Origin: Patescibacteria group bacterium | GTDB taxonomy: Bacteria > Patescibacteriota > Minisyncoccia > Phycocordibacterales > PALSA-1337 | Length of the DNA stretch: 64,000 nt | NCBI GenBank assembly: GCA_018970245.1 | Contig: JAGWWT010000001.1 | Location: forward strand, 17,548 to 81,547 | Direction of reading: 5' to 3' | Shown here: positions 16,032 through 58,974 of the stretch, one piece after another | How positions within the stretch are numbered: position 1 is the first letter of the stretch | Layout: each line of letters starts with the position of its first letter | The notes under the pieces: model-generated | Told to the model about the DNA's origin: nothing | Database searches by the model: none | The model's input: the letters and a program-made list of their open reading frames with translations, nothing else | Translations under genes and position numbers: made by a program

Positions 16032-16204
16032 ATGATTCCTGACGAGGCACCTGAATTGGGAGTTACTAGAGTTATTAACAGAAATAATTTCCACTATTCT
16101 TCTTCCCCCTATTCTTGTCCCAGGTTCATTTCCCATACTTTTCCAACATTCTGGGGAAAACCGCTATATGTGTGTACATATTACCCTTTTTCATTCACGG
16201 AAAT

Positions 16205-18318: not shown

Positions 18319-18761
18319 ATAACACCCAGACATTATCAAGCCAGCTTCCTCCTGTCGATGTGAGCAGCTCCGGTTTCAGGCTGACCGTATGCGACGGGCC
18401 GACCCTGCCTCCGGGTCAGAGCTGGGTCACCGCTTACAAGGACAGCTTCCAGGCCACTTACCACCGGCAGTATGTGGCATGCGATTTCAATGGCGCGATG
18501 ATGCAGGTTCAGCACCTCATCGACGTCGCTCTGGTCGCAGGCGTGCTCCTGGCGATCGCCGGCTTCTGCTACGCCGGCTTCCTTTACATCACGCATGGGG
18601 ACAACCCTGGAAAGCGCGACGAGGCCAAGGACATATTCAAAAAGATCTTCGTGGGCTTTATAATAATGCTTGCCGCCTGGTTCGTCGTCTACCAGGTCCT
18701 GGCCTGGCTCACCGGCGCGAATTCCGGGTTCACGTCCCTCTTGGGCAAACCGACACCATGA
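18315..18761 (+). CDS. Small two-TM membrane protein, paralog 1 of 6 (VirB2/TrbC-like topology)
   Basis: 148 aa. Start overlaps the SBP stop (ATGA). C-terminal TM pair with AAWFVVYQVLAWL. Confidence 0.5.
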   Translation: MNNTQTLSSQLPPVDVSSSGFRLTVCDGPTLPPGQSWVTAYKDSFQATYHRQYVACDFNGAMMQVQHLIDVALVAGVLLAIAGFCYAGFLYITHGDNPGKRDEAKDIFKKIFVGFIIMLAAWFVVYQVLAWLTGANSGFTSLLGKPTP

Positions 18762-19339
18762 ATAAATCCATGACATCGTCAAAATCAAATCTGCCGAAGC
18801 TATTGGCTATAGCTGTGGCTCTGCTCCTTATTTCTGCGCCTCTGAATTTCGTCCTGGCTCAGCAAGGTGCTGGCGGAACAGTCTCAGGAACTCCTGGTTC
18901 AGGGGCCGGAGGAACGGTCTCTGGAACTCCTGGTTCAGGTGTAGGCGGCACAGTGTCCGGAAATCCAGGATCTGCTGCCGGTGGCACTGTCAATCCCAAG
19001 GCAACCAGTCAACCCACCTTCACGCTCGTCAATCCGCTGCAAGTCAATTCCATCGGCGGTCTGATCGAGACTTTCGTCGAGATATTCAGCTACATAGCTA
19101 TCCTGATCGCCGTCCTCATGCTCATATGGGTCGGCTTCCAGTACATCACCGCTGCGGCGCAGGGCAATTCCGAGAAGATAAAAAGCCTGCACTCATACCT
19201 TCTGTGGATAGTGGTGGGCGTTGCCATCGTCATCGGCGCGCGCGTCATCGTCCAGATAACCATAAACACCCTATCGGCGACGCATACGGTGAACCAGAAC
19301 GTCATCCAGAGCGCCAATAACGCCCTGCAGGGCAATTGA
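18758..19339 (+). CDS. Small two-TM membrane protein, paralog 2 of 6
   Basis: 193 aa with a signal peptide and three GGTVSGTPGSG repeats, then a TM pair (VLMLIWVGFQYI ... LLWIVVGVAIV). ATGA overlap with paralog 1. Confidence 0.55.
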   Translation: MNKSMTSSKSNLPKLLAIAVALLLISAPLNFVLAQQGAGGTVSGTPGSGAGGTVSGTPGSGVGGTVSGNPGSAAGGTVNPKATSQPTFTLVNPLQVNSIGGLIETFVEIFSYIAILIAVLMLIWVGFQYITAAAQGNSEKIKSLHSYLLWIVVGVAIVIGARVIVQITINTLSATHTVNQNVIQSANNALQGN

Positions 19340-27370: not shown

Positions 27371-27400
27371 AGATTTAAGATTTAAGAATTAAGATTTAAG
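27371..27400. repeat. Heptamer tandem array (AGATTTAAG/ATTTAAG/AATTAAG)
   Basis: agatttaagatttaagaattaagatttaag, between rpmF and nusB. Confidence 0.8.
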
Positions 27401-27491
27401 GAGCCGGGCAGCAGGCTTAAATCGTAGATCCTAAGTCGTAGATCTTCGCATTAGCACTAGAAAGCCAGCACTAGAAAGCTCTTTCATCGAA

Positions 27492-28394
27492 ATGGCCAAT
27501 AGGCACCTATCAAGATCCGTCGTATTGCAATCCCTCTTCGAGTGGGATTTCCGAGGCCGCAACGACAAGGAATCTCCCGAGATAATCTCCCGCAACGTCA
27601 AGGAGTTCGCGCCAGGCATGGCCGATACGTCTTTTATCGACCTTCTCATGAAGGGCATCATGGCCAAGAAGGCCGACCTCGACCAGATCATAGAGAAGGC
27701 CGCCCCGGATTGGCCTATAGACAAGATCTCTCCCGTCGACCGCAACATCCTCCGCCTAGGCCTCTACGAGCTCATATTCGCCGACCGCTCGGAAGTGCCG
27801 GCCAAGGTAGCGATCAACGAGGCCATCGAGCTCGCCAAGACCTTCGGCGGCGAGACATCCGGCCGATTCGTGAACGGCGTCCTCGGCGCCGTATACAAGG
27901 AGCTCGGCGAGCCAGGCAAGGAAGCGGCTCCGGCCAAGAAGAAGAAACCCGCCGAGGTGCCTTACGAGCAGATGCCCATACAGCATCTCGGAGGCGCTGT
28001 TGTGTACGCCAAGAACGAAAAGGACATCTATCTGGCCTTCGTCCATGACATCTTCGGGCACTGGACCCTTTCCAAGGGCAAGATCCCAGAGGGCATCGCG
28101 CCTGACCAGGGCACTATCAACAAAGTAAAAGAAGAGATAGGCCTGGATGTCTCGATCAAGTCCGATCTCGGCACGAATGAATACATCGCCAACGATCCGG
28201 AGATAGGGAAGATCAGGAAGCAAGTCCATTACTATTTGGCGGAGTCCTCATTCACGGACCTCCACCTGGCCAAGAAGCCCGGGCTCGACGACGCCAAGTG
28301 GTTCAAGCTGGCCGATATCTTAGAGCTCAATTTCTATAATGACATCCTGCCCATAGTCACGAAAGCCGTCACGATGCTCGCGCAAGAGAAATGA
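27492..28394 (+). CDS. nusB: NusB fused to a C-terminal Nudix-like domain
   Basis: Residues 1-145 are a typical NusB. After a KKKK linker comes GAVVYAKNE...GHWTLSKGKIPEG...NKVKEEIGL, a Nudix-like box whose R and E positions are substituted. Confidence 0.75.
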   Translation: MANRHLSRSVVLQSLFEWDFRGRNDKESPEIISRNVKEFAPGMADTSFIDLLMKGIMAKKADLDQIIEKAAPDWPIDKISPVDRNILRLGLYELIFADRSEVPAKVAINEAIELAKTFGGETSGRFVNGVLGAVYKELGEPGKEAAPAKKKKPAEVPYEQMPIQHLGGAVVYAKNEKDIYLAFVHDIFGHWTLSKGKIPEGIAPDQGTINKVKEEIGLDVSIKSDLGTNEYIANDPEIGKIRKQVHYYLAESSFTDLHLAKKPGLDDAKWFKLADILELNFYNDILPIVTKAVTMLAQEK

Positions 28395-29089
28395 AGCCTG
28401 ACCTCGAAAGCCTAGCCAAAAGCTTGGGCGTCCGGTTCAAGGACATCTCCATCCTACGGACAGCCTGCACCCACCGATCCTACCTGAACGAGAACAAGGG
28501 GGCCGGTTTCGAGCACAACGAGCGGCTGGAATTCCTAGGCGATGCCGTCCTAGAGCTGGTCGTCACCAGCTTCCTCTTCAAGAAGTATCCAAAGAAGGCC
28601 GAAGGCGAGCTGACCTCGCTGAGGTCGGCCATTGTGAACACGGTCAGCCTGACCAGAGTGGCCGAGCATATCGGCCTCAATGATTTCCTGCTCCTATCGA
28701 AGGGTGAGCTCCGGGACACCGGCCGCGCTCGCTCGATCATTCTGGCCAACGCCGTCGAAGCCGTGATAGGCGCCATCTACCTCGACCAGGGATATGAGAC
28801 CGCCGGCGGCTTCATATCAGACAAGATCCTCGGGTCTATAGACATCGACGAGATCGCCGCCAAGAAGCTGTGGCTCGACGCCAAGAGCCGATTCCAAGAG
28901 CAGGCGCAGGACAAAGCTGGCAAGACCCCGAGCTACCGCACTCTCCGTGAAGAGGGCCCAGACCATAACAAGCAGTTCACTCTAGGCGTGTTCCTCGGGG
29001 ACGTCCAGGTAGCCTCGGGCACCGGGGCATCGAAACAGGAGGCAGAGCAAAAGGCCGCAGAGAAGGCGCTGGAAGCCAAGGGGTGGTAG
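28391..29089 (+). CDS. rnc: Ribonuclease III
   Basis: 232 aa with the ERLEFLGDAVLELVV signature and a C-terminal dsRBD. Overlaps the nusB stop. Confidence 0.9.
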   Translation: MKPDLESLAKSLGVRFKDISILRTACTHRSYLNENKGAGFEHNERLEFLGDAVLELVVTSFLFKKYPKKAEGELTSLRSAIVNTVSLTRVAEHIGLNDFLLLSKGELRDTGRARSIILANAVEAVIGAIYLDQGYETAGGFISDKILGSIDIDEIAAKKLWLDAKSRFQEQAQDKAGKTPSYRTLREEGPDHNKQFTLGVFLGDVQVASGTGASKQEAEQKAAEKALEAKGW

Positions 29090-29472: not shown

Positions 29473-29475
29473 ATA

Positions 29476-29527
29476 TCTCCAATCTCTAATATCTAATCTC
29501 TAATATCTAATCTCTAATCTCCAATCC
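29476..29527. repeat. Heptamer tandem array (reverse complement of ATTAGAG/ATTAGAT units)
   Basis: tctccaatctctaatatctaatctctaatatctaatctctaatctccaatcc, immediately upstream of smc. Confidence 0.85.
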
Positions 29528-38591: not shown

Positions 38592-38672
38592 TCAGAGATG
38601 GCAGGTTGACAGGCGCCGCGAGGCTTAGCGGATCACACGGTCCCTCGGCTCGGATTTTTTATTCACAGAAAC

Positions 38673-38757
38673 CCATTTGCATGACATTATTAACGGCCTA
38701 GTTGAGCTGCGCTGCAGAAAAATTACAACACACGAGCGACCAGATCGACGTTTCAAT
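38673..38757 (+). repeat. Copy B of the conserved ~85-nt intergenic element
   Basis: ccatttgcatgacattattaacggcctagttgagctgcgctgcagaaaaattacaacacacgagcgaccagatcgacgtttcaat, preceded by GGATTTTTTATTCAC after lysS. Confidence 0.8.
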
Positions 38758-39032: not shown

Positions 39033-39473
39033 ATGCTCATCGGAGAACACCGCCATACTATCGATGACAAGAATCGCCTGTCGCTTCCCGCCAAGTTCCG
39101 AAAGGAAATGGGACGCGCAGTTGTGATCACGCCGGGACTCGACTCCTGTCTCTTCGTCTTTTCGGCGAAGGAATGGGAGAAGATCTCCGGACGCTTGTCA
39201 GCGGGAGATTCTTCGATACTGCAGGCGGACAACCGCGGCTTCAACCGCTTCCTCCTCGGAGGGGCCGTTGAAGCTCCGGTTGATGCAGTCGGCCGCATGC
39301 TTCTACCGGAACATCTGCGCGAGCACGCCAGGCTCAAGACGAATGTCGTCTTCCTAGGCGTCGTGGACCGCGCCGAGATCTGGGACGAAGAGACTTGGAG
39401 CGCCTATCGGAAGGGTGTGACGGACAACGCCAACGCCCTCGCCGAGAAGCTAGGCCAGGCGGGCGTGAAGTGA
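39033..39473 (+). CDS. mraZ: Division/cell-wall cluster transcriptional regulator MraZ
   Basis: Start MLIGEHRHTIDDKNRLSLPAKFR, with the duplicated MraZ fold motif (second half GAVEAPVDAVGRMLLPEHLRE). Confidence 0.8.
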   Translation: MLIGEHRHTIDDKNRLSLPAKFRKEMGRAVVITPGLDSCLFVFSAKEWEKISGRLSAGDSSILQADNRGFNRFLLGGAVEAPVDAVGRMLLPEHLREHARLKTNVVFLGVVDRAEIWDEETWSAYRKGVTDNANALAEKLGQAGVK

Positions 39474-39532
39474 GGAGTATGGAGAAAGGAGAAAGGAGTA
39501 AGGAGAAAGGAGTAAGGAGCGACGAGAAAGGA
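39474..39532 (+). repeat. Heptamer array (AAGGAGA/AAGGAGT)n spanning the mraZ-rsmH junction and rsmH N-terminus
   Basis: ggagaaaggagaaaggagtaaggagaaaggagtaaggagcgacgagaaaggag, with SD-like units. Confidence 0.8.
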
Positions 39533-40462
39533 GATTCAGTCCACAAACCAGTACTTTTAAATGAAATCATCGGATATTTGACGGATCTGCCTGAACATCC
39601 GTCCGATATCTCGTATCTCGATGGGACTCTAGGCGGAGCAGGGCATGCTCTCGCCGTCGCTGAGGCCTTGAAGGAGAAAGGCGTGCGCCATCTGACGCTG
39701 GCCGGCTTGGACAGAGATCCGGCTGCCATCGCACGCGCCGCCGTCGCCCTGCAGGGGAAGGCTTCCAAGCTGATCCTTGAGAACGAAGATTTTCGGAACC
39801 TGGATAGGGTCCTCGATAAGCACGGCATGAAGGCCGTCGACCTTATCCTCCTAGATCTAGGCATCTCTTCGGATGAGCTAGAGTCTTCCGGCCGCGGCTT
39901 CACCTTCCAGAAGGACGAACCGCTCCTCATGACTCTTGGCGATCCGGCCCGGTACCAATTCACGGCCAAAGACATCGTGAACGGCTGGGAAGAGGAGGTG
40001 CTCGCGAACATCATTTTCGGATATGCAGAAGAAAAGTTCGCCAGGCGCATAGCCAGAGCCATCGTCATCTACCGGTCCAAGAAGAAGATAGAGACGTCGA
40101 TGGAGCTGGCCGAGATCGTCAAGAATGCCGTTCCTCCGTTCTACCGTCGCGGGAAGATCCACCCGGCCACCAAGACCTTCCAGGCCTTGCGCATCGCCGT
40201 CAACGACGAGCTTGAAGCGCTCCGTGAAGGCCTCGCCAAGGGATTCGACAGGCTGGCGCCTGGCGGCCGGATGGCAGTGATCTCCTTCCACAGCCTCGAA
40301 GACAGGATAGTGAAAGGATTCTTCAAAGACAAAGGGAAGCTGGGAGCGGACGTCCTCACCAAGAAGCCGGTCACCGCCGCTCAAGAAGAGATCTCGTCCA
40401 ACCCACGATCCCGCAGCGCGAAATTGCGAGTTATTTCTAAGAACAAAAACCAAAATAAATGA
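39479..40462 (+). CDS. rsmH: 16S rRNA (cytosine1402-N4)-methyltransferase RsmH (MraW)
   Basis: HKPVLLNEIIGYL and DGTLGGAGHA motifs. The only available in-frame start is the ATG at 39479, inside the heptamer array, so the N-terminus MEKGERSKEKGVRSDEKGD is repeat-encoded. Confidence 0.75.
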   Translation: MEKGERSKEKGVRSDEKGDSVHKPVLLNEIIGYLTDLPEHPSDISYLDGTLGGAGHALAVAEALKEKGVRHLTLAGLDRDPAAIARAAVALQGKASKLILENEDFRNLDRVLDKHGMKAVDLILLDLGISSDELESSGRGFTFQKDEPLLMTLGDPARYQFTAKDIVNGWEEEVLANIIFGYAEEKFARRIARAIVIYRSKKKIETSMELAEIVKNAVPPFYRRGKIHPATKTFQALRIAVNDELEALREGLAKGFDRLAPGGRMAVISFHSLEDRIVKGFFKDKGKLGADVLTKKPVTAAQEEISSNPRSRSAKLRVISKNKNQNK

Positions 40463-40803
40463 CAAGAACGATGACAGCAGCATACGATCTCGCCAACGAA
40501 CATCGCAGGCAGATAGTCTGCAGCCTTTTGATCGCGAGCTCATGCCTAGCGGCCATTTATGTGCTGAACATCTATTCGGTCGTCTCTAAGACCGTCGCCC
40601 TCCAGAGGACGGAGAAGCAGATCGCATCGCTCTCGCAGGGCGTCGAGGACCTAGATTCGCAGTATCTGGCCCTTTCGAGCAAGATCACGCCGGATTCCCT
40701 GAAGGAATACGGCTTGTCGCAGGTGCAGGTCTCGGAATACATCTCCCGCTCCTCCACGCTCGGCGTAAGCCAGCTGGCCGTCTCTGGCGGACATGAACTC
40801 TGA
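40459..40803 (+). CDS. ftsL: Cell division protein FtsL-like
   Basis: 114 aa: short cytoplasmic N-terminus, one TM, periplasmic coiled coil. Positioned between rsmH and ftsI with overlapping stop/start. Confidence 0.45.
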   Translation: MTRTMTAAYDLANEHRRQIVCSLLIASSCLAAIYVLNIYSVVSKTVALQRTEKQIASLSQGVEDLDSQYLALSSKITPDSLKEYGLSQVQVSEYISRSSTLGVSQLAVSGGHEL

Positions 40804-42535
40804 TCAACGCCTGCGTTCGCGGCTGATCTTCGGCCTATTCATCATGGGCGCAGCCGTTTTGGCCGTCTCCCTGTATTGGACGCAGATCGTCCAAGGCTCG
40901 CAATATCAGGCCAAGGCCGACCAGCAATACGACAAGCCCAATGCCGCGCAATTCGACCGCGGCACCATATATTTCGAGTCGCGGGACGGCACGAGAGTAG
41001 CGGCGGCGACCGTAGGCAGCGGGTATCTCGTTTTCATCAATCCATCGCAGCTCGCCGACCCGGCCGAAGCGTATTCGGCCCTCTCGCAATTCATATCCGT
41101 CGACCGCGCCTCATTCATGGCCAAAGCCACGAAGCCGAACGATCATTATGAGGTAGTCGCCGACCGGATCGCTACCGACGCCGCCCAATCCATACGCGGG
41201 CTCCAGATCGCCGGCCTGAACGTCGCTCCAGAGACATGGCGCTCATACCCGGGCGGCACGCTGGCAGCTCATGTCCTCGGCCTCACAGGCGAGGATGGCA
41301 GCTCCACGAACGTCATCGGCCGCTACGGCCTCGAGCGGTCTTACGAGGATGTCCTGGGGCGAGCTTCCGCTGGTTCGAGCGCTAACGTCTTCGCCCAGCT
41401 CTTCGGCGGCATCGGCACGGCGCTAGGGGGAGCATCATCGCAGAGCGGCGATATCGTCACGACCATAGACCCTACCGCTCAAAAATACTTGGAGCAGACC
41501 CTCAGCCAGACCGAGTCAGTATGGCATTCTGACGAGATCGGCGGTATAGTGATGGACCCGACCACTGGCGAGATCGTAGCCATGTCGTCGCTGCCGAGCT
41601 TCGACCCGAACGACACCTCATCGATAAAGGACGTATCGGTCTTCTCCGATCCGCTCGTCGAGCACGTATATGAGATGGGATCGATCATGAAGCCGCTCAC
41701 CATGGCTATGGCGCTCGATTCCGGGGCAGAGAAGCCCGACTCCTTATATGACGATACGGGCACGATGGTATTGAACGGCATGAAGATAGCCAACTACGAC
41801 GGCCGCGCGCGCGGGATCATCCCGATGCAGCAGATCCTATCGCAGTCGCTGAACATAGGCGCCGCCACTATAGCCTTGAAGACCGAGAAGGATATCGGCA
41901 CCGGGACCATGTTCAAGTATTTCAGCGATTACGGCCTCGGCGAGAAGTCCGGCATCGATGAGCCGAGCGAGGCCTCCGGCCTCATCTCCAACATCAAGCC
42001 TGGGCCTAACCTGCGCGATATTAACATCGCCACCGCGTCCTTCGGGCAAGGCATCGCCGTCTCGCCCATAGAGATGGTCAGGGCTCTTTCGGTCATAGCT
42101 AATGGCGGTTATCTCGTGACGCCGCATGTCGTGGATGAGATCGACCATACCGACGGTACGGTGCAGAGGATCTTGCCCCAAAAAGAAGGCCCAGTCATCT
42201 CCAAGACCGCCGCTGAAGACGTCACCTTGATGCTCATAAAGGTGGTCGATGACACGATGGCCAAGGTCCATAAGGACATGCATTGGCAGCATTATTCGAT
42301 CGCCGCCAAGACCGGCACGGCCCAGATCCCGGACCATGTCCATGGAGGCTATTATCCGAACCGCTATCTGCACTCCTTCTTCGGTTTTTTCCCGGCATAT
42401 GATCCGCGGTTCATAGTTTTCTTGTACCAGGTCTATCCCAAAGGCGCCGAATACGCCTCGGAGACTCTGACGGATCCCTTTAGCCAGATGGCGAAGTTTC
42501 TGATAAATTACTACAACATAGCTCCGGACAGGTAA
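40793..42535 (+). CDS. ftsI: Penicillin-binding protein (FtsI-type transpeptidase)
   Basis: 580 aa with an N-terminal TM and SIMK (SxxK), SQSLN (SxN) and KTGTA (KTG) motifs. Confidence 0.8.
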   Translation: MNSDQRLRSRLIFGLFIMGAAVLAVSLYWTQIVQGSQYQAKADQQYDKPNAAQFDRGTIYFESRDGTRVAAATVGSGYLVFINPSQLADPAEAYSALSQFISVDRASFMAKATKPNDHYEVVADRIATDAAQSIRGLQIAGLNVAPETWRSYPGGTLAAHVLGLTGEDGSSTNVIGRYGLERSYEDVLGRASAGSSANVFAQLFGGIGTALGGASSQSGDIVTTIDPTAQKYLEQTLSQTESVWHSDEIGGIVMDPTTGEIVAMSSLPSFDPNDTSSIKDVSVFSDPLVEHVYEMGSIMKPLTMAMALDSGAEKPDSLYDDTGTMVLNGMKIANYDGRARGIIPMQQILSQSLNIGAATIALKTEKDIGTGTMFKYFSDYGLGEKSGIDEPSEASGLISNIKPGPNLRDINIATASFGQGIAVSPIEMVRALSVIANGGYLVTPHVVDEIDHTDGTVQRILPQKEGPVISKTAAEDVTLMLIKVVDDTMAKVHKDMHWQHYSIAAKTGTAQIPDHVHGGYYPNRYLHSFFGFFPAYDPRFIVFLYQVYPKGAEYASETLTDPFSQMAKFLINYYNIAPDR

Positions 42536-42545
42536 TAAAATTGCA

Positions 42546-42573
42546 GAATTAGGAATTAAGAATTAAGATTTAT
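42546..42573. repeat. Heptamer tandem array (AATTAGG/AATTAAG)
   Basis: gaattaggaattaagaattaagatttat, ending 2 nt before the 4HB start codon. Confidence 0.8.
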
Positions 42574-42575
42574 GG

Positions 42576-42977
42576 ATGGGTCTACTAGACGCTCCAAGAA
42601 GCAAGATCAGATCATTCACAGACCTCAAATCCTGGAAGGAAGGCCATGGATTAGTAGTCTTGACCTATAGGATAACGGCAAAATTCCCGCGTTCTGAGCT
42701 TTATTCTCTCACTGATCAGATGCGTAGAGCTGCTTCTTCAGTAACCGCAAATATAGCGGAAGGGTTCGGGAGGCGAAGCTATAAAGAAAAGATCCAATTC
42801 TACTATCATTCACAGGGTTCTTTGACTGAATTGAAGGATCATATTTTGACAGCTAAGGATATCGGATATTTGAATGAGGATGATTTAAGATCCTTGGCAG
42901 AATCGGCCAATATGACTCACAGATTGCTTCAAGGACTCATAACGAAATCCAAGTCCTTCTTAAATCTTAAATCCTGA
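42576..42977 (+). CDS. Four-helix-bundle protein (23S rRNA-IVS protein family, TIGR02436; DGR Avd-like fold)
   Basis: 133 aa with the hallmark SVTANIAEGFGRRSYKEKIQFYYHSQGSLTELKDHILTAKDIGYL. Paralogous to 58549..58935. Inserted between ftsI and murF. Confidence 0.75.
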   Translation: MGLLDAPRSKIRSFTDLKSWKEGHGLVVLTYRITAKFPRSELYSLTDQMRRAASSVTANIAEGFGRRSYKEKIQFYYHSQGSLTELKDHILTAKDIGYLNEDDLRSLAESANMTHRLLQGLITKSKSFLNLKS

Positions 42978-42990
42978 TTCTTAATTCCTG
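42957..42990. repeat. Heptamer tandem array overlapping the 3' end of the 4HB gene
   Basis: ttcttaaatcttaaatcctgattcttaattcctg encodes the C-terminal FLNLKS* and continues past the stop. Confidence 0.8.
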
Positions 42991-42998: not shown

Positions 42999-44303
42999 AT
43001 GCAACCCATCAAGAAAGCCATAATAAGCATCCTCACACTGGAGTCCAGGCTCATACTGCGCAAATACAGGCCATTCATCGTGGCCGTGACCGGCAGCGTA
43101 GGCAAGACTTCGACCAAGGACGCGATCTTCAGCGTCTTCAAGGGCCAAGGCGGCTATGTGCGGAAGAGCGAGAAGAACATGAACAGCGACATCGGCTTGC
43201 CGCTCACGATCATAGGCGTGCCGAATGCTTGGCGCAGCCCTTCGGCTTGGCTGAAGAACATAAGGGCCGGCCTGAGGCTCATCCTGTCCAAGAATGAATA
43301 CCCGGATTGCCTGATCTTGGAGGTGGGTGCGGATCACCCGGGAGACATCAGCAGGACGGTGAGATGGCTCAAGCCGGACATCGCCGTGATCACCAAAGTC
43401 TCGCAGACGCCGGTCCACGTAGAGTTCTTCAAGTCGCCTGAGGACGTCTTCAAGGAGAAAGCATCGCTCGCCGAAGGCGTCAAAGCCGGAGGGACAGTGA
43501 TCCTCTTTGCCGACGACGCGAAGGTCATGTCGATCGCCGATATGGTCAAAGCCAAGCAGTCGAGGATAGCGACCTTCGGGACAGCCGAAGGGTCGACGGT
43601 CAAGGGTTCTGGCTTCGAGACGGCATACGACGAGCAAGGCAGGCCGAAGGGGATCGCCTTCGGCATGCAGATGGGGTCGACGAGCCTGCGCGCATCGGTG
43701 GACGGCATACTGGGGCGCACATTCATGTACCCTCTCCTCACAGCGGCCGCAGCGGCTCAAGCGAGGGGTATCGATGCGGAAAAGATCGCCGAAGGCATCA
43801 ATTCCTATGAGGCGCCCAGGGGCAGGATGAACATCATAGAGGGCGCGAATGGCTCGATGATTATAGACGACACCTACAATTCCTCGCCCGATGCAGCCGA
43901 AGCGGCCCTAGAGACGATCAAATCGCTACGATGCGCCGGCTCGAAGATCGCGGTTCTCGGAGACATGATGGAGCTTGGCAAATTCTCGGCAGAGGAGCAC
44001 AGGAAGATCGGCGCGGTCGCAGCCTCATCGGTCGATCGGCTAGTGACAGTGGGGCCTAGGTCGCGTGCGACGGCGGAAGAAGCGGGGAAGAAAGGCCTCT
44101 CTCAGGCGATGATCGCGTCGTTCGATTCCGCAGACGAGGCCGCAAGCTTTCTCAAGCCGCTCGTAGGCCCTGGCGATACGATCCTGGTCAAAGGATCGCA
44201 ATCAGTGCGCATGGAGCGGGTCGTGAAAGCCCTGATGCGCTCGCCTGAAGACGCTGAGAAGCTGCTTGTCCGGCAGGAGCCGGAATGGCTGAGCAGGGCC
44301 TGA
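42999..44303 (+). CDS. murF: UDP-N-acetylmuramoyl-tripeptide--D-alanyl-D-alanine ligase (MurF)
   Basis: 434 aa. LRKYRPFIVAVTGSVGKTSTKD is a Mur-ligase P-loop with the MurF-type N-terminus. Confidence 0.7.
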   Translation: MQPIKKAIISILTLESRLILRKYRPFIVAVTGSVGKTSTKDAIFSVFKGQGGYVRKSEKNMNSDIGLPLTIIGVPNAWRSPSAWLKNIRAGLRLILSKNEYPDCLILEVGADHPGDISRTVRWLKPDIAVITKVSQTPVHVEFFKSPEDVFKEKASLAEGVKAGGTVILFADDAKVMSIADMVKAKQSRIATFGTAEGSTVKGSGFETAYDEQGRPKGIAFGMQMGSTSLRASVDGILGRTFMYPLLTAAAAAQARGIDAEKIAEGINSYEAPRGRMNIIEGANGSMIIDDTYNSSPDAAEAALETIKSLRCAGSKIAVLGDMMELGKFSAEEHRKIGAVAASSVDRLVTVGPRSRATAEEAGKKGLSQAMIASFDSADEAASFLKPLVGPGDTILVKGSQSVRMERVVKALMRSPEDAEKLLVRQEPEWLSRA

Positions 44304-44362
44304 GGCGCTTCCTGGAATGATCTCTTCGAATAAAAAAGCGGAGACGGGCTCCGCGGGCCGCC

Positions 44363-44770
44363 TCATCGCCAGAGGTCGGATTCGAACCAGCATGCCAGAG
44401 GATAGTCCTCGATGACCTTTTTCTTGTCGAACCGCCTGGCATATAGGATGCAGCATATGGCGCCGCCGGGCGGGACGAGCGGGGTCGTGATGCAGACCTC
44501 CATCCGTTCGGCCTCGGCTGACCGCATCTCGAATATGGTCTGCAATTTGTCTATGACCGGCCTTACGCTCATAGGGACCTTGAGGCCCCGGAAGTCTTTG
44601 AGATAAAGGCGCCAGTGCACGGTCCCGAATGAACGCCTTATCGAGGCTACCAAGTTCATAGACAAGATGGCGATCTTGTTATTGTGGATGATCCAGAAGA
44701 GCGTGCTTTCGTCGGTGCAATCTGCTTCGATATGCTTGCCGACACGATTTCTGTCTCGGATAACATTCAT
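44363..44770 (-). CDS. Hypothetical protein
   Basis: 135-aa ORF with a plausible coding pattern and no recognisable motif. Confidence 0.35.
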   Translation of the reverse strand: MNVIRDRNRVGKHIEADCTDESTLFWIIHNNKIAILSMNLVASIRRSFGTVHWRLYLKDFRGLKVPMSVRPVIDKLQTIFEMRSAEAERMEVCITTPLVPPGGAICCILYARRFDKKKVIEDYPLACWFESDLWR

Positions 44771-44873
44771 AAAAAGCGTTTCTCCGCATGGAAAAGTACC
44801 ACTATCTTAGCGTCAGGTCAACTATTTTTTGAGTTTTTTTGCGGAAAATGCTATGGTTCTTCCACCAGATCGC

Positions 44874-44948
44874 GGCCCTATCGTCTAGCCTGGTCTAGGA
44901 CACAGGATTCTCAATCCTGGAACCCGGGTTCAAATCCCGGTGGGGTCA
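44874..44948 (+). tRNA. tRNA-Glu (anticodon CTC)
   Basis: GGCCCTATCGTCTAGCCTGGTCTAGGACACAGGATTCTCAATCCTGGAACCCGGGTTCAAATCCCGGTGGGGTCA. D-loop TCGTCTAG is typical of tRNA-Glu; T-loop GGTTCAAATCC. Confidence 0.8.
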
Positions 44949-45083
44949 CCCGACCGAAAAAGCATCGAGCTTGTCTCGGTGCGTTTTCGTGTCGTGGGGC
45001 TAGCGGGATTTGAAAGACGGAGCGAGCGGAGGCGAGCGAGTCGGGGTCGCGGGCGAGCCGAGCACGGCGAGACCCGTGACCAA

Positions 45084-48128: not shown

Positions 48129-49127
48129 ATGAACAGAAATGAGGCAAAAAACCGCTGTAATGGCCCGCAAACAAAGACGTCTTACGGATTTATGAGAGCC
48201 CGCACCGCATCAGTCCTAGGGAGCGTGATCCTGGGGGCGGCTTTATTCGCTTTTCTGCCGGCTGGCAGAGCCGATGCCCAGATCTTCCCGTTCCCATTCG
48301 GAGGAGGTTCGCACTCCAGCCCTCTCGGCTTCTTGCCAAATCCAGGCCGCCTGCCGAATCCTCTCAGCATATTGCCGAATCCATTCGGATCGCCGATAGG
48401 CCACGATTACGGCTACGGCAACAACCACGGCTATAACAACAATTACAACTACAATTATAACTACAACTATAATTCCAACCGCGGACCTTATCCGCCTCCG
48501 GCATATCACCCGCCAGAGCCGCGCCCAAATCCGCAACCATATCCGTATCCGATCCCACACCCCCAGCCGAATCCTCGCCCATATCCATATCCGTCGCCGT
48601 ATCCTTCGCCGGTGCCATATCCGGTGCCATATCCTGTCCCGCAGCCGGTCTACTACCCACAACCTCAACCTGTGGTCCAGCCGATCTATTATCCTCAGCC
48701 TCAGCCTGTGGTCCAGCCCATAGTCTATCAACAGCCGGTCTATGTGCCCCCGCCGCAGCCAGTCTACGTACAACAGCCGCAGCCGATCGTCATAAGCCAG
48801 CCGCAACCCGTCTACGTCCAGCAGCAGCCGGTCATCGTGAGCCAGCCGTATCAGTCATACCCCCAGTCGCTCTCCATATCCTGCTATCCGGATTCGACGA
48901 CCGTTTACAACAACCGATTCGTGACATGGACAGCCGATGTCACCGGCGGCGTCACGCCCTACGCTTATTCTTGGAGCGGGACAGAGTACACCGGCAATAT
49001 GAGCTCGAGCCAGATATACCAGTACTACCAGTATCTCGGATACAAGACTATGAATGTGACCGTCCGCTCTGCCGACGGCCAGACGGCATTCGCCAGCTGC
49101 GGCTCGGTGAACGTGATAGATCCATAG
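48129..49127 (+). CDS. Secreted low-complexity protein (NY and PQPV repeats) with a conserved C-terminal module
   Basis: Signal peptide; (NY)n; P/Q/V/Y-rich repeats. The C-terminal TVRSADGQTAFASCGSVNV is shared with the 51472 gene. Confidence 0.55.
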   Translation: MNRNEAKNRCNGPQTKTSYGFMRARTASVLGSVILGAALFAFLPAGRADAQIFPFPFGGGSHSSPLGFLPNPGRLPNPLSILPNPFGSPIGHDYGYGNNHGYNNNYNYNYNYNYNSNRGPYPPPAYHPPEPRPNPQPYPYPIPHPQPNPRPYPYPSPYPSPVPYPVPYPVPQPVYYPQPQPVVQPIYYPQPQPVVQPIVYQQPVYVPPPQPVYVQQPQPIVISQPQPVYVQQQPVIVSQPYQSYPQSLSISCYPDSTTVYNNRFVTWTADVTGGVTPYAYSWSGTEYTGNMSSSQIYQYYQYLGYKTMNVTVRSADGQTAFASCGSVNVIDP

Positions 49128-49148: not shown

Positions 49149-51374
49149 ATGGCTGTACCCGATAGCTTTTTGAAGCCCTACGATCCTGGGGCTACCGAAG
49201 ACCGCATATACTCGCTCTGGGAGAAGAGCGGCTTTTTCGATCCTGACGATCTGCCTGAAAGGAACAAGAATGGCGAGCCTTTTTCCATAGTCCTGCCCCC
49301 GCCTAACGTGACAGGCACCCTCCATATGGGCCATGCCGCCATGCTCGCTATCGAGGACATAATGATCAGATACAAGCGGATGCGCGGATACAGGACATTG
49401 TGGCTTCCTGGCACGGATCACGCAGCCATCGCCACGCAATCCAAGGTCGAGAAAGAGATAGTCAAGAAGGAGGGCAAGAATCGCCACGACCTAGGACGAG
49501 AGGAGTTCCTGAAGCGCGTTGGCGAGTTCGCCAAGAATAGCCACGACACGATAGTCAATCAGGTCCGCAAGATGGGCGCTTCAGTCGACTGGTCGCGGGA
49601 AGCATTCACTTTGGATGAGAAGCGCTCCTTCGCTGTCCGGACCGCCTTCAAGCGCATGTACGATATGGGCCTCATTTACCGCGGCAACCGCATCGTCAAT
49701 TGGGATCCGAAGGGGCAGACCACTATCTCCGACGATGAGATCGTCTATAAGGAAGAGAAGACGAAGTTCTATTATTTCAAATACGGCCCGTTCGTCATCG
49801 GCACAGCCAGGCCTGAGACGAAGTTCGGCGACAAGTACGTCGTCATGCATCCGGACGATGCGCGCTACGCCGCTTACAAGCATGGCCAGAAGATCGACCT
49901 TGAATGGATAAACGGCCCTATCACGGCGACGGTCATCAAGGATGCTTCTATCGACATGGAGTTCGGGACCGGCGTCATGACGATCACGCCTTGGCACAGC
50001 GCTGTGGATTTCGACATAGCCGAACGGCATAAGCTCGACAAAGAGCAGATCATCGATACATTCGGCAAGCTCCTGCCCGTAGCGGGCGAGTTCGCCGGCA
50101 TGAAGATCGCCGAAGCCAGGCCCAAGATCGTGGAGAAGCTCCGCGCTAAAGGCCTCGTAGAAAAGGAAGAAGACTACGTCCACAACATCGCTACCGCTGA
50201 GCGCACTGGCGGCCTAGTGGAGCCTCAGATCATGAAGCAATGGTTCGTCGGGGTGAATACGAGGTTCGAGATCCCGGGCGCCAAAAAAGGCTCGAGCAGC
50301 AAGACTCTCAAAGAGATTATGAAGGAAGCTGTCGAGTCCGGAAAGATAAAGATCATTCCTGACAGATTCGAGAAGATCTATTATCACTGGATAGACAATC
50401 TCCGCGATTGGTGCATCTCGCGCCAGATCTGGTATGGGCACAGAGTGCCGGTGTGGTACAGGAGGGCAGAGATTGGAGATGAGAGATTAGATATTAGAGA
50501 TGAGAGATCAGAGACTAGAGAGGAGGTGTATGTGGGCGTGGAGGCGCCGGAAGGGGAAGGTTGGAGACAAGATGAAGACACTCTCGATACCTGGTTCTCG
50601 TCGGGCCTCTGGACATTCTCGACCCTAGGCTGGCCGGAAGAGACCGAAGACCTCAAGCTCTACCACCCGACCGACGTCCTCGAGACGGGCTATGACATCC
50701 TCTTTTTCTGGGTGGCCAGGATGATCCTCATGACCGGATGCCTTCTCGGTGATGTACCGTTCAAGACAGTCTATCTCCATGGCCTCGTCCGCGATGGGAA
50801 GGGCCGCAAGATGTCCAAATCGCTGGACAACATCATCGATCCTCTGGACATGATCAAGAAGTACGGCGGCGACGCCACGCGCCTGTCGCTCATCATCGGC
50901 ACCGGACCAGGGAACGATCTCAAGCTCTCCGAGGACAAAGTCCGCGGCTACAAGAATTTCGCTAATAAGCTCTGGAACATCACTCGTTTCGTCCTGGAAT
51001 CAGCCGGCGGCGAGGCCATCGACAAAGCCTTCGAAGGCTACACGGACGCAGACGCCAAGCTCCGCAAGGCCAGGCGTGCGTTCCTGGAAGAGATCACCCG
51101 CGAAATGGAGGAGTTCAAATTCTACCTGGTAGGCGAAAAGCTATATCACTATGCCTGGCATGAATTCGCGGACAAGATCCTAGAGGATAGCAAGAAGATA
51201 TTCAGGGAGGGGGATGAAAAGGCCCAGAGGTCACGCCGCCAGCTTTTGCTCCATACGCTGGACGATATCTTGCGGGCTCTGCATCCATTCATGCCATTCG
51301 TGACTGAAGAGATCTGGAGGGCTATGGATCGGGATCAGGGCATGCTCATGGTCCAGGAATGGCCGATCGCCTAA
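49149..51374 (+). CDS. valS: Valyl-tRNA synthetase (short form) with a repeat-encoded insertion
   Basis: 741 aa with PPPNVTGTLHMGHA (HIGH), KMSKS and an editing domain. Lacks the long C-terminal coiled coil. Confidence 0.9.
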   Translation: MAVPDSFLKPYDPGATEDRIYSLWEKSGFFDPDDLPERNKNGEPFSIVLPPPNVTGTLHMGHAAMLAIEDIMIRYKRMRGYRTLWLPGTDHAAIATQSKVEKEIVKKEGKNRHDLGREEFLKRVGEFAKNSHDTIVNQVRKMGASVDWSREAFTLDEKRSFAVRTAFKRMYDMGLIYRGNRIVNWDPKGQTTISDDEIVYKEEKTKFYYFKYGPFVIGTARPETKFGDKYVVMHPDDARYAAYKHGQKIDLEWINGPITATVIKDASIDMEFGTGVMTITPWHSAVDFDIAERHKLDKEQIIDTFGKLLPVAGEFAGMKIAEARPKIVEKLRAKGLVEKEEDYVHNIATAERTGGLVEPQIMKQWFVGVNTRFEIPGAKKGSSSKTLKEIMKEAVESGKIKIIPDRFEKIYYHWIDNLRDWCISRQIWYGHRVPVWYRRAEIGDERLDIRDERSETREEVYVGVEAPEGEGWRQDEDTLDTWFSSGLWTFSTLGWPEETEDLKLYHPTDVLETGYDILFFWVARMILMTGCLLGDVPFKTVYLHGLVRDGKGRKMSKSLDNIIDPLDMIKKYGGDATRLSLIIGTGPGNDLKLSEDKVRGYKNFANKLWNITRFVLESAGGEAIDKAFEGYTDADAKLRKARRAFLEEITREMEEFKFYLVGEKLYHYAWHEFADKILEDSKKIFREGDEKAQRSRRQLLLHTLDDILRALHPFMPFVTEEIWRAMDRDQGMLMVQEWPIA
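50476..50517 (+). repeat. Six degenerate heptamers (42 nt) in-frame inside valS
   Basis: gatgaga gattaga tattaga gatgaga gatcaga gactaga encodes DERLDIRDERSETR, located between the WYGHR(V)P(V)WY motif and RQDEDTLDTWFSS. Confidence 0.75.
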
Positions 51375-55261: not shown

Positions 55262-55825
55262 ATGGATTCATACAAGAACAAGATCATATATTTCTACAGG
55301 CGCACGAAGCGCATGCCCAGCTATGCGGAGATAATGTCTCTGCTCGGCTTCAAGTCCAAGAATGCCGTCTACAAATTGGTGAACAAGCTCGTGAGCGAGG
55401 GTGCTTTGGATAAAGATTCGCAGGGACGGCTAGTACCGAACCGCCTTTTCGGAGAGGTGCCTGTCCTCGGATTGGTCGAGGCGGGATTTCCCACCGCTGC
55501 CGAGGAGGAGCTCGTAGATACTATGAGCCTCGACGAATATATGATCGAGAACAAAGAGGCCACCTATATGCTCGAGGTAAAGGGCGATTCTATGATCGAG
55601 GCCGGCATCCAGGAAGGCGACCTTGTCATCGCTGAAAGAGGCAAGGAGCCCAAGCCTGGCGATATCGTCATTGCCGAGGTCGACGGCGGATGGACGATGA
55701 AATATTTCCGTAAGACCGGCAACCAAGTGTGGCTGGAGCCTGCGAACAAGGCGTACAAGCCTATCTATCCCGAAGCCGATCTCAAGATCGCCGCCGTCGT
55801 GAAGGGGGTGATCAGGAAATATTAA
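55262..55825 (+). CDS. lexA: SOS repressor LexA
   Basis: 187 aa from MDSYKNKIIYFYRR: wHTH (YAEIMSLLGFKSKNAVYKLV), S24 peptidase with VKGDSMIEAGI (catalytic Ser) and the Lys dyad partner. Confidence 0.85.
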   Translation: MDSYKNKIIYFYRRTKRMPSYAEIMSLLGFKSKNAVYKLVNKLVSEGALDKDSQGRLVPNRLFGEVPVLGLVEAGFPTAAEEELVDTMSLDEYMIENKEATYMLEVKGDSMIEAGIQEGDLVIAERGKEPKPGDIVIAEVDGGWTMKYFRKTGNQVWLEPANKAYKPIYPEADLKIAAVVKGVIRKY

Positions 55826-55835
55826 ATATCAAAGA

Positions 55836-55857
55836 TTAAAAATTAAAAACAACAACC
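55836..55857. repeat. Short heptamer-like array (GATTAAA/AATTAAA)
   Basis: aagattaaaaattaaaaacaac, immediately upstream of the VOC gene start. Confidence 0.5.
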
Positions 55858-57882: not shown

Positions 57883-57922
57883 TAGATATTAGAGATTAGA
57901 GACTAGAGATTAGAGACTAGAG
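57883..57922. repeat. Heptamer tandem array (ATTAGAG/ACTAGAG) overlapping the recR 3' end
   Basis: gatattagagattagagactagagattagagactagag. The recR stop and last codons lie inside it. Confidence 0.85.
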
Positions 57923-58518
57923 CGCCGGTTTTGGAGGGCGCTCTTTATCGTTTCAGAGTCGGCATATTCGAGCTCTGCGCCTGTGGATAGGCCCCGTCCT
58001 AGGACAGTGATCCGAGCCGGCGAGACTTTTGCCAAACCTTCGTGCACGATCTTTTCGGTGTGCTCGCCATCAGGGGTCGTATTCAGGGACAGGATGATCT
58101 CCGTCAGCGTCGATTCGGATGCGCGTTCCAAGAGCTGCTGCAGCCTTATGCGCTTCTCGGGCTCCTTGTCTAGTATGGGCACAGTGCCGCCGAGGATGAA
58201 ATATAGGCCTTTGTATGCGCCTGATCTTTCGACAGTCTCGAAGTCCGAGTCTCTGGCGACGACCATCAGCGTGGATCGGTCTCGGCTCTGATCGGCACAT
58301 GTCGGACAGAGGTCTGTTTTTTGAGCCCTATGGAAGAAGAACCTATGGCACTTCTCGCATTCGCTGGTCGATCGGCGGACGTCGGCGACTAGGTCGGTGA
58401 ATTCCTTGATCGAAGCAGGAGACTTGTTGAGCAGATAATAGACGAACCGCTTGGCCTGGCGAGGGCCGATGCCTGGGAAGCGGGAGAATATCTCTTCTAG
58501 GCGGTGTAGGGAATCCAT
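57910..58518 (-). CDS. recR: Recombination protein RecR
   Basis: 202 aa with HhH, a C4 zinc finger (CEKCHRF...CPTC), and Toprim and Walker-B-like motifs. Confidence 0.9.
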   Translation of the reverse strand: MDSLHRLEEIFSRFPGIGPRQAKRFVYYLLNKSPASIKEFTDLVADVRRSTSECEKCHRFFFHRAQKTDLCPTCADQSRDRSTLMVVARDSDFETVERSGAYKGLYFILGGTVPILDKEPEKRIRLQQLLERASESTLTEIILSLNTTPDGEHTEKIVHEGLAKVSPARITVLGRGLSTGAELEYADSETIKSALQNRRSSL

Positions 58519-58544
58519 GGGAGTAGAGCGGAGAGTAGAGAGCA

Positions 58545-58575
58545 GAGATTAGAGATTAGAGATTAGATTAGAGAG
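58545..58575. repeat. Heptamer tandem array (AGATTAG) overlapping the 4HB gene 3' end
   Basis: agagattagagattagagattagattagagag. Its reverse complement encodes the C-terminal ...LSNLISNL*. Confidence 0.85.
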
Positions 58576-58935
58576 GGAATTGGTTTTTGTGATCAGGCCC
58601 TGCAGCAGGCGATGGGCGCTGCTGATCCGATCACTGGCCTCATTGTAGTCTTTTTCTGAGATGTATGAAATATCCCTCGAAAGGATGAGCTGGTTCTCGA
58701 GCTCTGACATCGAGCCGCGAGCTTGGTAATAGAAATGCGCTTTGTCCTTGTATGTCCTGCGTCCGAAGCCCTCGGCGATATTGGACGTGATCGATACGGC
58801 TGACCTTCTCATCTGGCCTGCAAGGCCAAAGAGCTCTTCCTTCGGGAATTTCCTCGTCAAATCATACACGCCCATTACAAGGCGGTGTGAGACCTGCCAA
58901 GCCTGCAAATCTGTGAATTTGACGATGCCACCCAT
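58549..58935 (-). CDS. Four-helix-bundle protein (23S rRNA-IVS protein family, TIGR02436; Avd-like fold), paralog 2
   Basis: 128 aa: FTDLQAWQVSHRLVMGVYDLTRKFPKEE...RRSAVSITSNIAEGFGRRTYKDKAHFYYQARGSMSELENQLILSRDISYI. Confidence 0.8.
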   Translation of the reverse strand: MGGIVKFTDLQAWQVSHRLVMGVYDLTRKFPKEELFGLAGQMRRSAVSITSNIAEGFGRRTYKDKAHFYYQARGSMSELENQLILSRDISYISEKDYNEASDRISSAHRLLQGLITKTNSLSNLISNL

Positions 58936-58939
58936 ATAT

Positions 58940-58970
58940 GCCCTCTAATATCTAATCTCTAATCTCTGCC
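58940..58970. repeat. Heptamer tandem array upstream of the 4HB gene
   Basis: ccctctaatatctaatctctaatctctgccc. Confidence 0.8.
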
Positions 58971-58974
58971 CCCC

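Follow-up and report, generated by a model that had tools for sequence, protein, structure and literature searches.

Four-helix-bundle genes enclosed by inverted heptamer arrays in operons of a Patescibacteria bacterium, best read as intervening-sequence-type cassettes

Intervening sequences (IVSs) of 23S rRNA that contain an open reading frame (ORF) are known as the Leptospira, Coxiella, Xanthomonas and Brucella type, and they occupy helix 45 and helix 25. The Coxiella IVS is 428–444 nt long, carries an S23p ORF, ends in a 28-bp terminal stem, has three or four GACAGAT heptamers ahead of the ATG and is excised by RNase III, which also excises IVSs bearing a four-helix-bundle (4HB) gene in other bacteria (PMC4990558). 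Tandem heptamers have also been described in intergenic regions, namely GGGAATC in Xanthomonas and GGGGAYT in Nostoc (Rehm et al. 2015, PMC4692102) and TAACTGA (TAACTMA-type) repeats in Beggiatoaceae, Cyanobacteria and Bacteroidetes (MacGregor 2015, PMC4679880). Here we describe two 4HB genes, hb1 and hb2, each enclosed by heptamer arrays, in a 64,000-nt stretch of DNA from a Patescibacteria group bacterium (positions 17,548 to 81,547 of contig JAGWWT010000001.1, forward strand, assembly GCA_018970245.1; hereafter the window). The best reading of the feature is that of an IVS-type cassette lodged in a protein-coding operon.

The hb1 gene (42576–42977, plus strand) encodes a 133-aa protein of pI 9.7 that belongs to the PF05635/TIGR02436 4HB family; it scored 117.1 bits against PF05635 (cut-off 33.8) and 109 bits against TIGR02436 (cut-off 24), and the hb2 product likewise scored above both curated cut-offs. 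An earlier note on this DNA had placed a 4HB gene between ftsI and murF, and the profile scores at this position bear that out. The upstream neighbor, ftsI (40793–42535), encodes a penicillin-binding protein/FtsI-type transpeptidase, and murF (42999–44303), downstream, a MurF-type ligase, for which TIGR01143 was the best match at 263.5 bits, below its cut-off of 288.6. The 5′ arm of cassette 1 (42529–42572, plus strand) is made up of the G/A-rich heptamers AGAATTA, AGGAATT and AAGATTT (array 42545–42572); its pairing extends back to the ftsI stop codon, and the array ends 3 nt before the hb1 ATG. The 3′ arm (42957–42990, plus strand) consists of C/T-rich heptamers that are the complement of the 5′ arm; it codes for the last six hb1 residues (FLNLKS), includes the stop codon and comes within 8 nt of the murF ATG. 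Tandem Repeats Finder (TRF) reported period 7 at 42545–42572 (4.0 copies) and at 42957–42987 (4.4 copies), in agreement with the earlier description of heptamer arrays on both sides of the gene, the 3′ one encoding FLNLKS and continuing past the stop. A protein 100% identical to hb1 is on record, annotated 'four helix bundle protein [Patescibacteria group bacterium]'; an exact look-up of hb1 in a contig index returned no record. The match to the structure of XCC0516 (2gsc_A) had a phmmer E value of 1.9e-17 for hb1 and 6.6e-19 for hb2. A tblastn search of a phage collection gave no match to the 4HB protein and therefore no sign of a phage origin.

The second gene, hb2 (58549–58935, minus strand), encodes a 128-aa protein of pI 9.5 that is 49% identical to hb1 and scored 127.3 bits against PF05635 and 118 bits against TIGR02436 (cut-off 24). 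It lies between recR (57910–58518) and, on the opposite side, dnaB (58975–60348), all three genes being on the minus strand. The 5′ arm of cassette 2 (58943–58974, minus strand) reads GGGGGGGCAGAGATTAGAGATTAGATATTAGAGGG and then CATATATG on the minus strand, and the 3′ arm (58530–58580, minus strand) is (AGAGATT)n on the plus strand, that is, (AATCTCT)n in the sense of the gene, where it overlaps the last ~10 hb2 codons (NSLSNLISNL) and the stop. Period-7 arrays were detected by TRF at 58531–58567 (5.3 copies) and 58943–58967 (3.6 copies), so that the paralog does have the bracketed layout ascribed to it earlier; the units carried by the two cassettes are different.

In both copies the arms are inverted complements of each other, with 91% complementarity between 42551–42572 and 42968–42989 in cassette 1 and 96% between 58542–58567 and 58944–58969 in cassette 2. 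In the minimum-free-energy and centroid RNA folds each cassette is closed by a single long stem at its ends, and the ORF occupies the loop (cassette 1, −134 kcal/mol, z = −2.6; cassette 2, −173 kcal/mol, z = −4.8, both relative to shuffles). The predicted stem of ~30–40 bp takes in the ribosome-binding region and start codon on one side and the last 6–10 codons and the stop on the other. A stem around the ORF is the defining anatomy of rRNA IVSs, and the arrays are the arms of that stem rather than independent microsatellites. The description of the locus as a self-contained cassette with microsatellite termini thus holds for the inserted cassette, but its termini are the two arms of a hairpin. 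Neither cassette has its own promoter or terminator beside it on the sense strand according to consensus scans, which are weak evidence in an organism of the candidate phyla radiation (CPR).

A metagenome scan with an alignment of hb1 relatives yielded 80 loci, to which the two window copies were added; ORF starts in the sampled loci were set mechanically. Copies that had 100 nt of flank or more were each searched for the best inverted repeat joining a 135-nt segment around the start to a 165-nt segment around the stop. The score was 26 or higher in 57 of 65 4HB loci (median score 38). The controls were 250 ORFs of 150 aa or more in those loci, and only 6 of them reached that score (mean 17, 95th percentile 22). 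A heptamer bracket was seen around none of 377 control ORFs in a wider scan, where the inverted-repeat outliers were palindromes of other kinds. Because no control ORF was bracketed and because period 7 stands out in the window, as described below, we conclude that the bracket around 4HB genes is not due to chance. Seven was the best period in 54 of 57 5′ arms and in 53 of 57 3′ arms, and the median arm length was 4.3 units on the 5′ side (interquartile range 3.7–4.6) and 4.1 units on the 3′ side (3.7–4.9). The arm unit varied by locus (GATTTAN, GTAGCAN, GTAATGG, GAAAATG, GGAATAT, GGGGTTT, GTAGATT and others), yet the two arms of any one locus stayed complementary. Nearly all homologs more than ~60% identical to hb1 had a GATTTAN/GAATTAN unit, whereas more distant homologs had other units, and the C-terminal FLNxKS tail, which is encoded by the arm, was kept in many homologs with a GATTTAN-type unit. 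A profile search placed 32,219 clusters at 50% identity in PF05635.

The heptamer bracket is a family-wide signature in four phyla, true 23S rRNA IVSs included. A tblastn search of plasmids with the 4HB protein returned 50 records, mostly cyanobacterial, and ten of these were inspected. Inverted arms were seen in Nostoc edaphicum, (GGGAACA)n and (TGTTCCC)n; Geminocystis, (GGGAAAA)n; Trichormus, (TCAGAAT)n; Calothrix, (GGGTGTA)n; Nostoc punctiforme, (CAGGAGT)n; and Riemerella (Bacteroidota), (GGTTTAA)n. A genuine IVS in 23S helix 45 of Azospirillum lipoferum carries (GACAGAG/GACGGAT)n. In the plasmid hosts the 4HB gene was inserted in operons, between cas6 and cas4, between cas10 and cmr3, and among conjugation genes. 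The sequence of XCC0516 (PDB 2GSC) was rebuilt from its alignment and then used to retrieve Xanthomonas loci, in which the gene of this family lies between accB and accC. Its 5′ flank reads GGGAATC GGGAGTG GAGAATC GGGAATC and its 3′ flank is complementary, CCCATTC CCCATTC TCGACTC CCTATTC. This arm unit is identical to the published genome-wide GGGAATC heptamer, which is massively enriched in Xanthomonas, with 186 arrays in X. campestris, 70 of them counted as convergent pairs, and no known function (Rehm et al. 2015, PMC4692102). The 4HB/S23/IVS protein is not mentioned in the full texts of PMC4692102 and PMC4679880, and a full-text literature search of incomplete coverage, which is not proof of novelty, found no publication joining heptamer repeats to the 4HB protein.

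We compared the ftsI-murF junction with that of related genomes, as the earlier note had proposed. A MurF scan of species-representative genomes gave 34 Patescibacteria loci, of which 31 also hold ftsI and the other three do not; the nearest MurF relatives were Taylorbacteria-like metagenome-assembled genomes. All 31 loci have the order rsmH-ftsL-ftsI-murF and a spacer of 7–240 nt between ftsI and murF without a 4HB gene, which identifies cassette 1 as an insertion. All 31 also lack murE at this position, murF following ftsI directly; the statement that murE would normally follow ftsI is therefore incorrect for this lineage, and the absence of murE from this junction in the window is uninformative. 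In the window itself the dcw cluster ends at murF and is followed by a tRNA gene (44874–44948) and ORFs without Pfam matches, not by mraY-murD-ftsW-murG (window 44303–45000). These comparisons also bear on the possibility that hb1 is an old resident regulatory gene of the dcw cluster with a translational-control hairpin, lost from the relatives. An intact and well-conserved ORF (38 columns are invariant among 22 aligned sequences), co-orientation with the operon and a stable position within a species are all as expected of a resident gene. Such a history is nevertheless hard to reconcile with the absence of the gene from all 31 sites, with closest homologs that lie in unrelated contexts, with a second copy between dnaB and recR, or with the same design in rRNA genes of Proteobacteria, and orthologs standing at this site without arrays and in conserved synteny, which the earlier note had named as the mark of an ancient resident, were not found. 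We therefore consider an old resident gene very unlikely.

One relative, L006, has a 130-nt ftsI-murF spacer that holds an ORF-less hairpin, (GATTTAG/GATTTAC)n, an 11-nt loop and (TCTTAAA/TCATAAA)n. Cassette 1 of the window minus its ORF aligns colinearly with this hairpin, irregular parts of the 3′ arm included, and therefore ORF-bearing and ORF-less forms of one hairpin share the site in different species. In another relative, L001, the 239-nt ftsI-murF spacer (4762–5001) contains a palindromic inverted-repeat element of the CCCCCTTTTTCAAAGGGGG type and no heptamers, and the hairpin elements that this spacer seems to attract differ from one genome to another.

Inverted termini, presence or absence of the cassette at one site among species and the coexistence there of ORF-less and ORF-bearing forms would also be expected of a DNA element of the transposon type, either a miniature inverted-repeat transposable element (MITE) or an element like an insertion sequence (IS), with heptamer terminal inverted repeats, mobilized by the 4HB protein or by a transposase acting in trans, in which case the RNA hairpin would be incidental. 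A transposon origin of IVSs has been proposed by earlier authors (PMC4990558), and the maintenance of arm complementarity without a G·U bias (see below) fits such an element. The target duplication that the earlier note had suggested looking for is not visible, however; no direct repeat was found at the outer junctions of either cassette in the window, although the intergenic sequences of the relatives are too diverged (~60% protein identity) for the junction to be defined exactly. No transposase lies beside either window copy, identical 4HB proteins were found in one context only, and we know of no catalytic motif in the PF05635 family. Moreover, the arms extend over the start codon and the C-terminal codons, and their purine/pyrimidine polarity is fixed relative to transcription, a polarity for which a purely DNA-level terminal repeat has no need. 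A transposon or MITE identity was rejected for lack of a target-site duplication and of a transposase beside the copies, and because the paralogs are 49% identical; an element of this general kind appears unlikely. The unrelated contexts of homologs (accB/accC, cas6/cas4, cas10/cmr3, methyltransferase/bacA, dnaB/recR and 23S rRNA) and the insertion itself agree with the suggestion that the cassette is a mobile or recombination-prone unit, but identical proteins keep the same context in every sample, which argues that movement is rare, and no mobility is visible on the time scale of populations.

Heptamer arrays are found elsewhere in the window as well. TRF gave twelve period-7 rows, ten of them with at least 3.5 copies. 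Among all periods from 5 to 12, arrays reaching 3 units were confined to period 7; three period-4 arrays of 12 nt qualify as well. Five places bear the AGAGATT unit and four the AGATTTA/AGAATTA unit, so the window contains intergenic heptamer simple sequence repeats (SSRs) in the sense of at least 3 units and a recurring unit. An ORF-less hairpin with the hb1-type unit lies upstream of nusB-rnc (27371–27444, plus strand) and consists of (AGATTTA)4, an 18-nt loop region and (TAAATCG/TAGATCC)n; its fold of −26.7 kcal/mol (z = −2.9) is composed of paired blocks of 2–9 bases, 6 being the commonest length, with single mismatches between them. A solo array, (ATCTCTA)x7.4 followed by a C-run, is located between a terminator-like hairpin and the start of smc (29475–29526, plus strand), and the segment 29475–29530, which matches 58934–58975, is a near copy of the hb2 5′ arm, C-run included, in opposite orientation. 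Another solo array of the hb2 unit, (TAGAGAT)x5.7, lies between rplU and the 3′ end of recR (57883–57922, plus strand), so that recR has an equally oriented hb2-unit array on each side (57883–57922 and 58530–58580). The hb2 5′ arm (58943–58974) therefore has two possible partners, its own 3′ arm and the array on the far side of recR, and pairing with the latter would loop out recR. Within valS (49149–51374), an in-frame array of the hb2 unit, (AGAGATT)x7.7 (50468–50521, plus strand), encodes ~18 residues, ...AEIGDERLDIRDERSETRE..., and stands where Thermus ValRS has a cysteine-rich loop (alignment to 1GAX); a repeat of the hb2 unit has colonized a coding loop of an essential enzyme. At the head of the dcw operon in which cassette 1 lies, the mraZ-rsmH spacer contains (AGGAGAA/AGGAGTA)x8.9 (39473–39534, plus strand), ~nine tandem Shine-Dalgarno-like motifs; AGGAGAA is a third unit type, and no 4HB gene with that unit is present in the window. 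A weak A/T-rich array, (AAATATT)x4.4 (55817–55847, plus strand), lies between genes for a LexA-like S24 peptidase and a glyoxalase-family protein.

Nine solo heptamer arrays (>250 nt from the gene) were counted in 163 kb of 4HB loci, where other periods from 5 to 11 gave none; there were two in 318 kb of the dcw loci of relatives, one of them that of L006, and none in 197 kb of other bacteria. The counts are small, and four of the nine arrays come from one locus. Based on this difference, we conclude that the arrays go with the 4HB gene, by genome and by unit. The window has two paralogs and two dominant units, its solo arrays use those units, and in Xanthomonas the arm unit is the dominant unit of the genome.

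These results must be set against another explanation of the arrays, that they are ordinary slippage microsatellites, heptamers being the unit most prone to slippage in bacteria, in which 4HB genes merely lie or into which they prefer to insert, with no functional relation between protein and repeat. Published studies report an excess of heptamer SSRs in many bacteria and ascribe it to slippage of the polymerase (PMC4692102, PMC4679880). Solo arrays without ORFs, even within valS, are what slippage would produce, as are one freely variable heptamer position and arm mismatches without an RNA-specific wobble signal. Slippage does not account, however, for a bracket around 57 of 65 4HB genes and around none of the 377 control ORFs, for arrays that are inverted with a polarity fixed relative to the gene, or for the narrow range of 4–5 units in arm length. 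Furthermore, the hb1 unit is shared with the closest homologs from other metagenomes whereas the paralogs in one genome differ, which argues that the unit follows the gene rather than the host, and the dcw loci of relatives are nearly devoid of heptamer arrays (2 in 318 kb). We judge slippage without any protein-repeat relation to be an improbable explanation.

The earlier note had linked the gene to Avd, the accessory protein of diversity-generating retroelements (DGRs), and one may ask whether hb1 and hb2 are stand-alone Avd-like proteins of a DGR elsewhere in the genome. PF05635 is the Pfam family found most often beside DGR reverse transcriptases (RTs) (PMC10053308), many precomputed homologs are labeled PF22296 (bAvd-like), and weak matches to PF22296 and NF033474 were obtained. 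The PF22296 score was 27.6 bits for hb2 against a cut-off of 40, with no hit for hb1, and the NF033474 scores of 19.4 and 29.8 bits are below the cut-off of 80. An RT domain was found in none of the 38 substantial window ORFs scanned, and no pair resembling a template repeat and variable repeat (TR/VR) is present; the sole long dispersed repeat pair (103 nt) is intergenic, and its mismatches are not adenine-specific. In addition, the homologs lie inside housekeeping operons and rRNA, not beside RTs. The identity as a DGR Avd was rejected, both models being below cut-off and neither an RT domain (38 ORFs scanned) nor a TR/VR pair having been found in the window, and the stand-alone version of it is highly improbable. 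The 103-nt repeat pair (16187–16289 and 38655–38757, TTTTTCATTCACGGAAATCCATTTGCATGACA...GCAGAAAAATTACAACACACGAGGGACCAGATCGACGTTTCGAT) is 86% identical, with the second copy in the spacer of lysS and mraZ, and may represent a promoter/leader or a small RNA.

We consider it probable that the cassette is a promoter-less IVS-type unit that rides on host operons. The upstream neighbor shared the strand of the 4HB gene in 42 of 44 loci and the downstream neighbor in 33 of 38; because the neighbors are co-oriented and no sense-strand promoter or terminator was detected beside the cassettes, the element is apparently carried, in sense orientation, on host transcripts. The arms are asymmetric, the 5′ arm being purine-rich with merely 5% C, and G(5′)–C(3′) pairs outnumber C–G pairs 406 to 61. 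In the mechanism that we propose, the cassette would be transcribed as part of the host operon, the arms would pair in the RNA as a stem of ~30–40 bp, and host RNase III would cut the stem, by analogy with rRNA IVSs, thereby separating the ftsI, 4HB and murF messages. Such a processing step would account for the tolerance of the element between genes that are essential and within rRNA. Since the stem hides the start codon, translation of the 4HB protein should depend on opening or processing of the stem. More tentatively, a putative 4HB pentamer may recognize the heptamer unit of its own cassette, both in the arms and in solo arrays, with one unit to each subunit. The idea of one unit per subunit comes from the 4–5 units in each arm and the pentameric state of the XCC0516 homolog, by analogy with ring proteins such as TRAP; XCC0516 is described as a ring of five four-helix bundles by Lin et al. 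(2006), as cited in PMC10053308. New copies, or gain and loss of the ORF, would arise by recombination between arrays of the same unit.

Several observations weigh against this proposal. The metagenome sample was drawn by two peptide patterns and is therefore biased to hb1 relatives, and among the inspected loci there are three exceptions to the bracket: in Pseudanabaena (CTAAAAG)n is present in 10–12 or more copies per side in direct orientation, in Picosynechococcus the period is near 8, and the Nostoc PCC 7120 plasmid copy, which belongs to a subfamily associated with an ISL3 transposase, has no inverted arms. In 63 arm pairs, G·U-compatible mismatches (48) were not in excess over A·C-type mismatches (47), and complementarity preserved in the DNA, through copying or conversion between the arms, could fit equally well. 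The mismatches cluster in one heptamer phase (52% as compared with 36% expected, a value reached in 0 of 2000 simulations), which leaves short paired blocks, commonly of 6 bases, between single mismatches, a pattern that the ORF-less hairpins show too; each arm may thus be constrained as a string of 6-nt motifs and not as a pairing partner. Complementarity at the variable heptamer position was 61% as compared with 39% for shuffled partners; we do not rely on this value, which is inflated by the choice of the best register among several 7-nt shifts. Cleavage by RNase III is argued here by analogy only. Finally, identical 4HB proteins had the same gene context in every sample examined and the window paralogs are merely 49% identical, neither of which indicates recent movement.

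Some further observations concern the loci used above. The gene for RNase III with its dsRNA-binding domain, rnc (28391–29089, plus strand; PF14622 136 bits, PF00636 94 bits, PF00035 66 bits), is present in the window and is not part of a cassette; nusB-NUDIX and rnc are bracketed by the hb1-unit hairpin upstream (27371–27444) and the hb2-unit array downstream before smc (29475–29526), which is possibly a coincidence, although RNase III is the trans-acting enzyme predicted to cut such stems. On the Pseudanabaena galeata plasmid (L140), where the 4HB gene lies between cas6 and cas4, at least 7 heptamer arrays with related units (CTAAAAG, AGCTGTT, AGCCAAC, GCTAATC) occur within 3.3 kb of a CRISPR-cas operon. 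A search with the PCC 7120 plasmid homolog recovered only the ISL3-linked 4HB subfamily, at 75% identity or higher. This subfamily of 116 aa (L141, 1504–1854, and L162–L171; Nostoc PCC 7120 gamma plasmid and Nostoc punctiforme chromosome) lies directly downstream of an ISL3-family transposase, is mostly >90% identical over many cyanobacterial genera, mostly Nostocales, and has no inverted heptamer arms, with different heptamer runs on each side; the gene is apparently a passenger of an IS element. The outliers among the control ORFs included three palindromes resembling repetitive extragenic palindromes (REPs), around ORFs of 213–237 aa in CPR loci. The ORFs at L005 524–1165 and L057/L058 1273–1986 lie between such palindromes (GTAGGGTCAGACCCTAC or TGTAGAGGTCAGACCTCTACA), and the 237-aa gene of L057/L058, which has a weak Y1-transposase (PF01797) label, is ~500 nt upstream of a 4HB cassette; these palindrome-flanked ORFs look like a system of REPs and REP-associated tyrosine transposases (RAYTs) in Patescibacteria. 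Two other repeats in the window are coding: a 36-nt tandem repeat of 3 copies (18865–18972) within a gene resembling a pilin of type IV secretion systems (18389–19339), and complex 12/24/36/45-nt repeats (48431–48848) that encode a Q/P/Y-rich stretch of an unannotated ORF (48129–49127).

PF05635 is a very large family of no known function; its members carry no annotation beyond 'four helix bundle protein' or IVS protein, and the DGR Avd has it as its parent family. For nearly two decades heptamer repeats have ranked, in published reports, as the most over-represented class of long SSRs in bacteria, with no mechanism to account for them. The present analysis adds that the 4HB gene and heptamer repeats are physically and systematically linked across phyla, with the rRNA IVS as one special case of a general operon-dwelling cassette. 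Two descriptive puzzles thereby become one testable hypothesis, for which XCC0516 has been crystallized and Xanthomonas is tractable. A bolder extension, which we put forward as possible though on balance doubtful, is that the heptamer repeats of bacteria have their missing partner in the PF05635 proteins, each pentamer reading its own 7-nt unit, and that gene and arrays together form a self-propagating protein-repeat system that seeds operon spacers, 5′ leaders, rRNA helices and even coding loops with hairpins and solo arrays. If true, it would explain ORF-bearing rRNA IVSs, the over-represented heptameric SSRs (cyanobacterial short tandemly repeated repetitive sequences (STRRs), GGGAATC and TAACTGA) and the spurious 'association' of the PF05635 family with CRISPR-cas operons. 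Cassettes of this kind split essential operons (dcw, accBC, cas) and should be recognized in annotation and operon prediction; in guilt-by-association screens, for example for CRISPR-linked genes, the PF05635 family should be treated as an intruder and not as a component.

Among the closest described systems is the rRNA IVS. The cassettes share with it the PF05635 ('S23p') protein, a size of ~430–450 bp, an ORF enclosed by terminal inverted repeats that form a stem of ~28–40 bp, heptamers just before the ATG (GACAGAT in Coxiella, PMC4990558; GACAGAG/GACGGAT in the Azospirillum IVS), transcription from a host promoter, which is predicted for the cassettes, and ORF-less and ORF-bearing forms at the same site. 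They differ in location, lying in the ftsI/murF and dnaB/recR spacers and not inside an rRNA gene (Rfam finds three tRNAs only and no rRNA in the window), and in that excision by RNase III has been demonstrated for rRNA IVSs and is proposed here by analogy. Like the genome-wide heptamers, including the STRRs, the window arrays are tandem, have 2–14 units, are mostly intergenic and often stand right before start codons, with frequent convergent pairs and occasional in-frame copies; the cause and function of the genome-wide repeats are not known. Unlike them, the arrays described here are tied to a gene, and the window units AAGATTT/AAGAATT and AGAGATT are not G-quadruplex-forming. An integron gene cassette was rejected, since the repeats stand on both sides of the ORF, not as a single attC hairpin at its 3′ end, and the unit is solitary, in housekeeping operons and with no integrase nearby. 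The REP/RAYT system is similar in having a small gene flanked by inverted repeats and ORF-less copies elsewhere in the genome, but REP flanks are single GC-rich palindromes and the enclosed gene encodes a catalytic HUH transposase, whereas the flanks here are tandem heptamers and, to our knowledge, 4HB proteins have no catalytic site; this identity was also rejected. Avd binds nucleic acid together with its RT. It is a distant homolog of the 4HB proteins and, like them, a basic four-helix bundle, pentameric in bAvd (PDB 4DWL; PMC10053308), but it differs in that neither an RT domain among the scanned ORFs nor a TR/VR pair was found in the window and the Avd models score below cut-off. A putative 4HB pentamer and the 4–5 heptamers of each arm may be likened to TRAP, as a working analogy only and with no homology. 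TRAP is a ring-shaped homo-oligomer that binds 11 (G/U)AG repeats, one per subunit, overlapping a ribosome-binding region.

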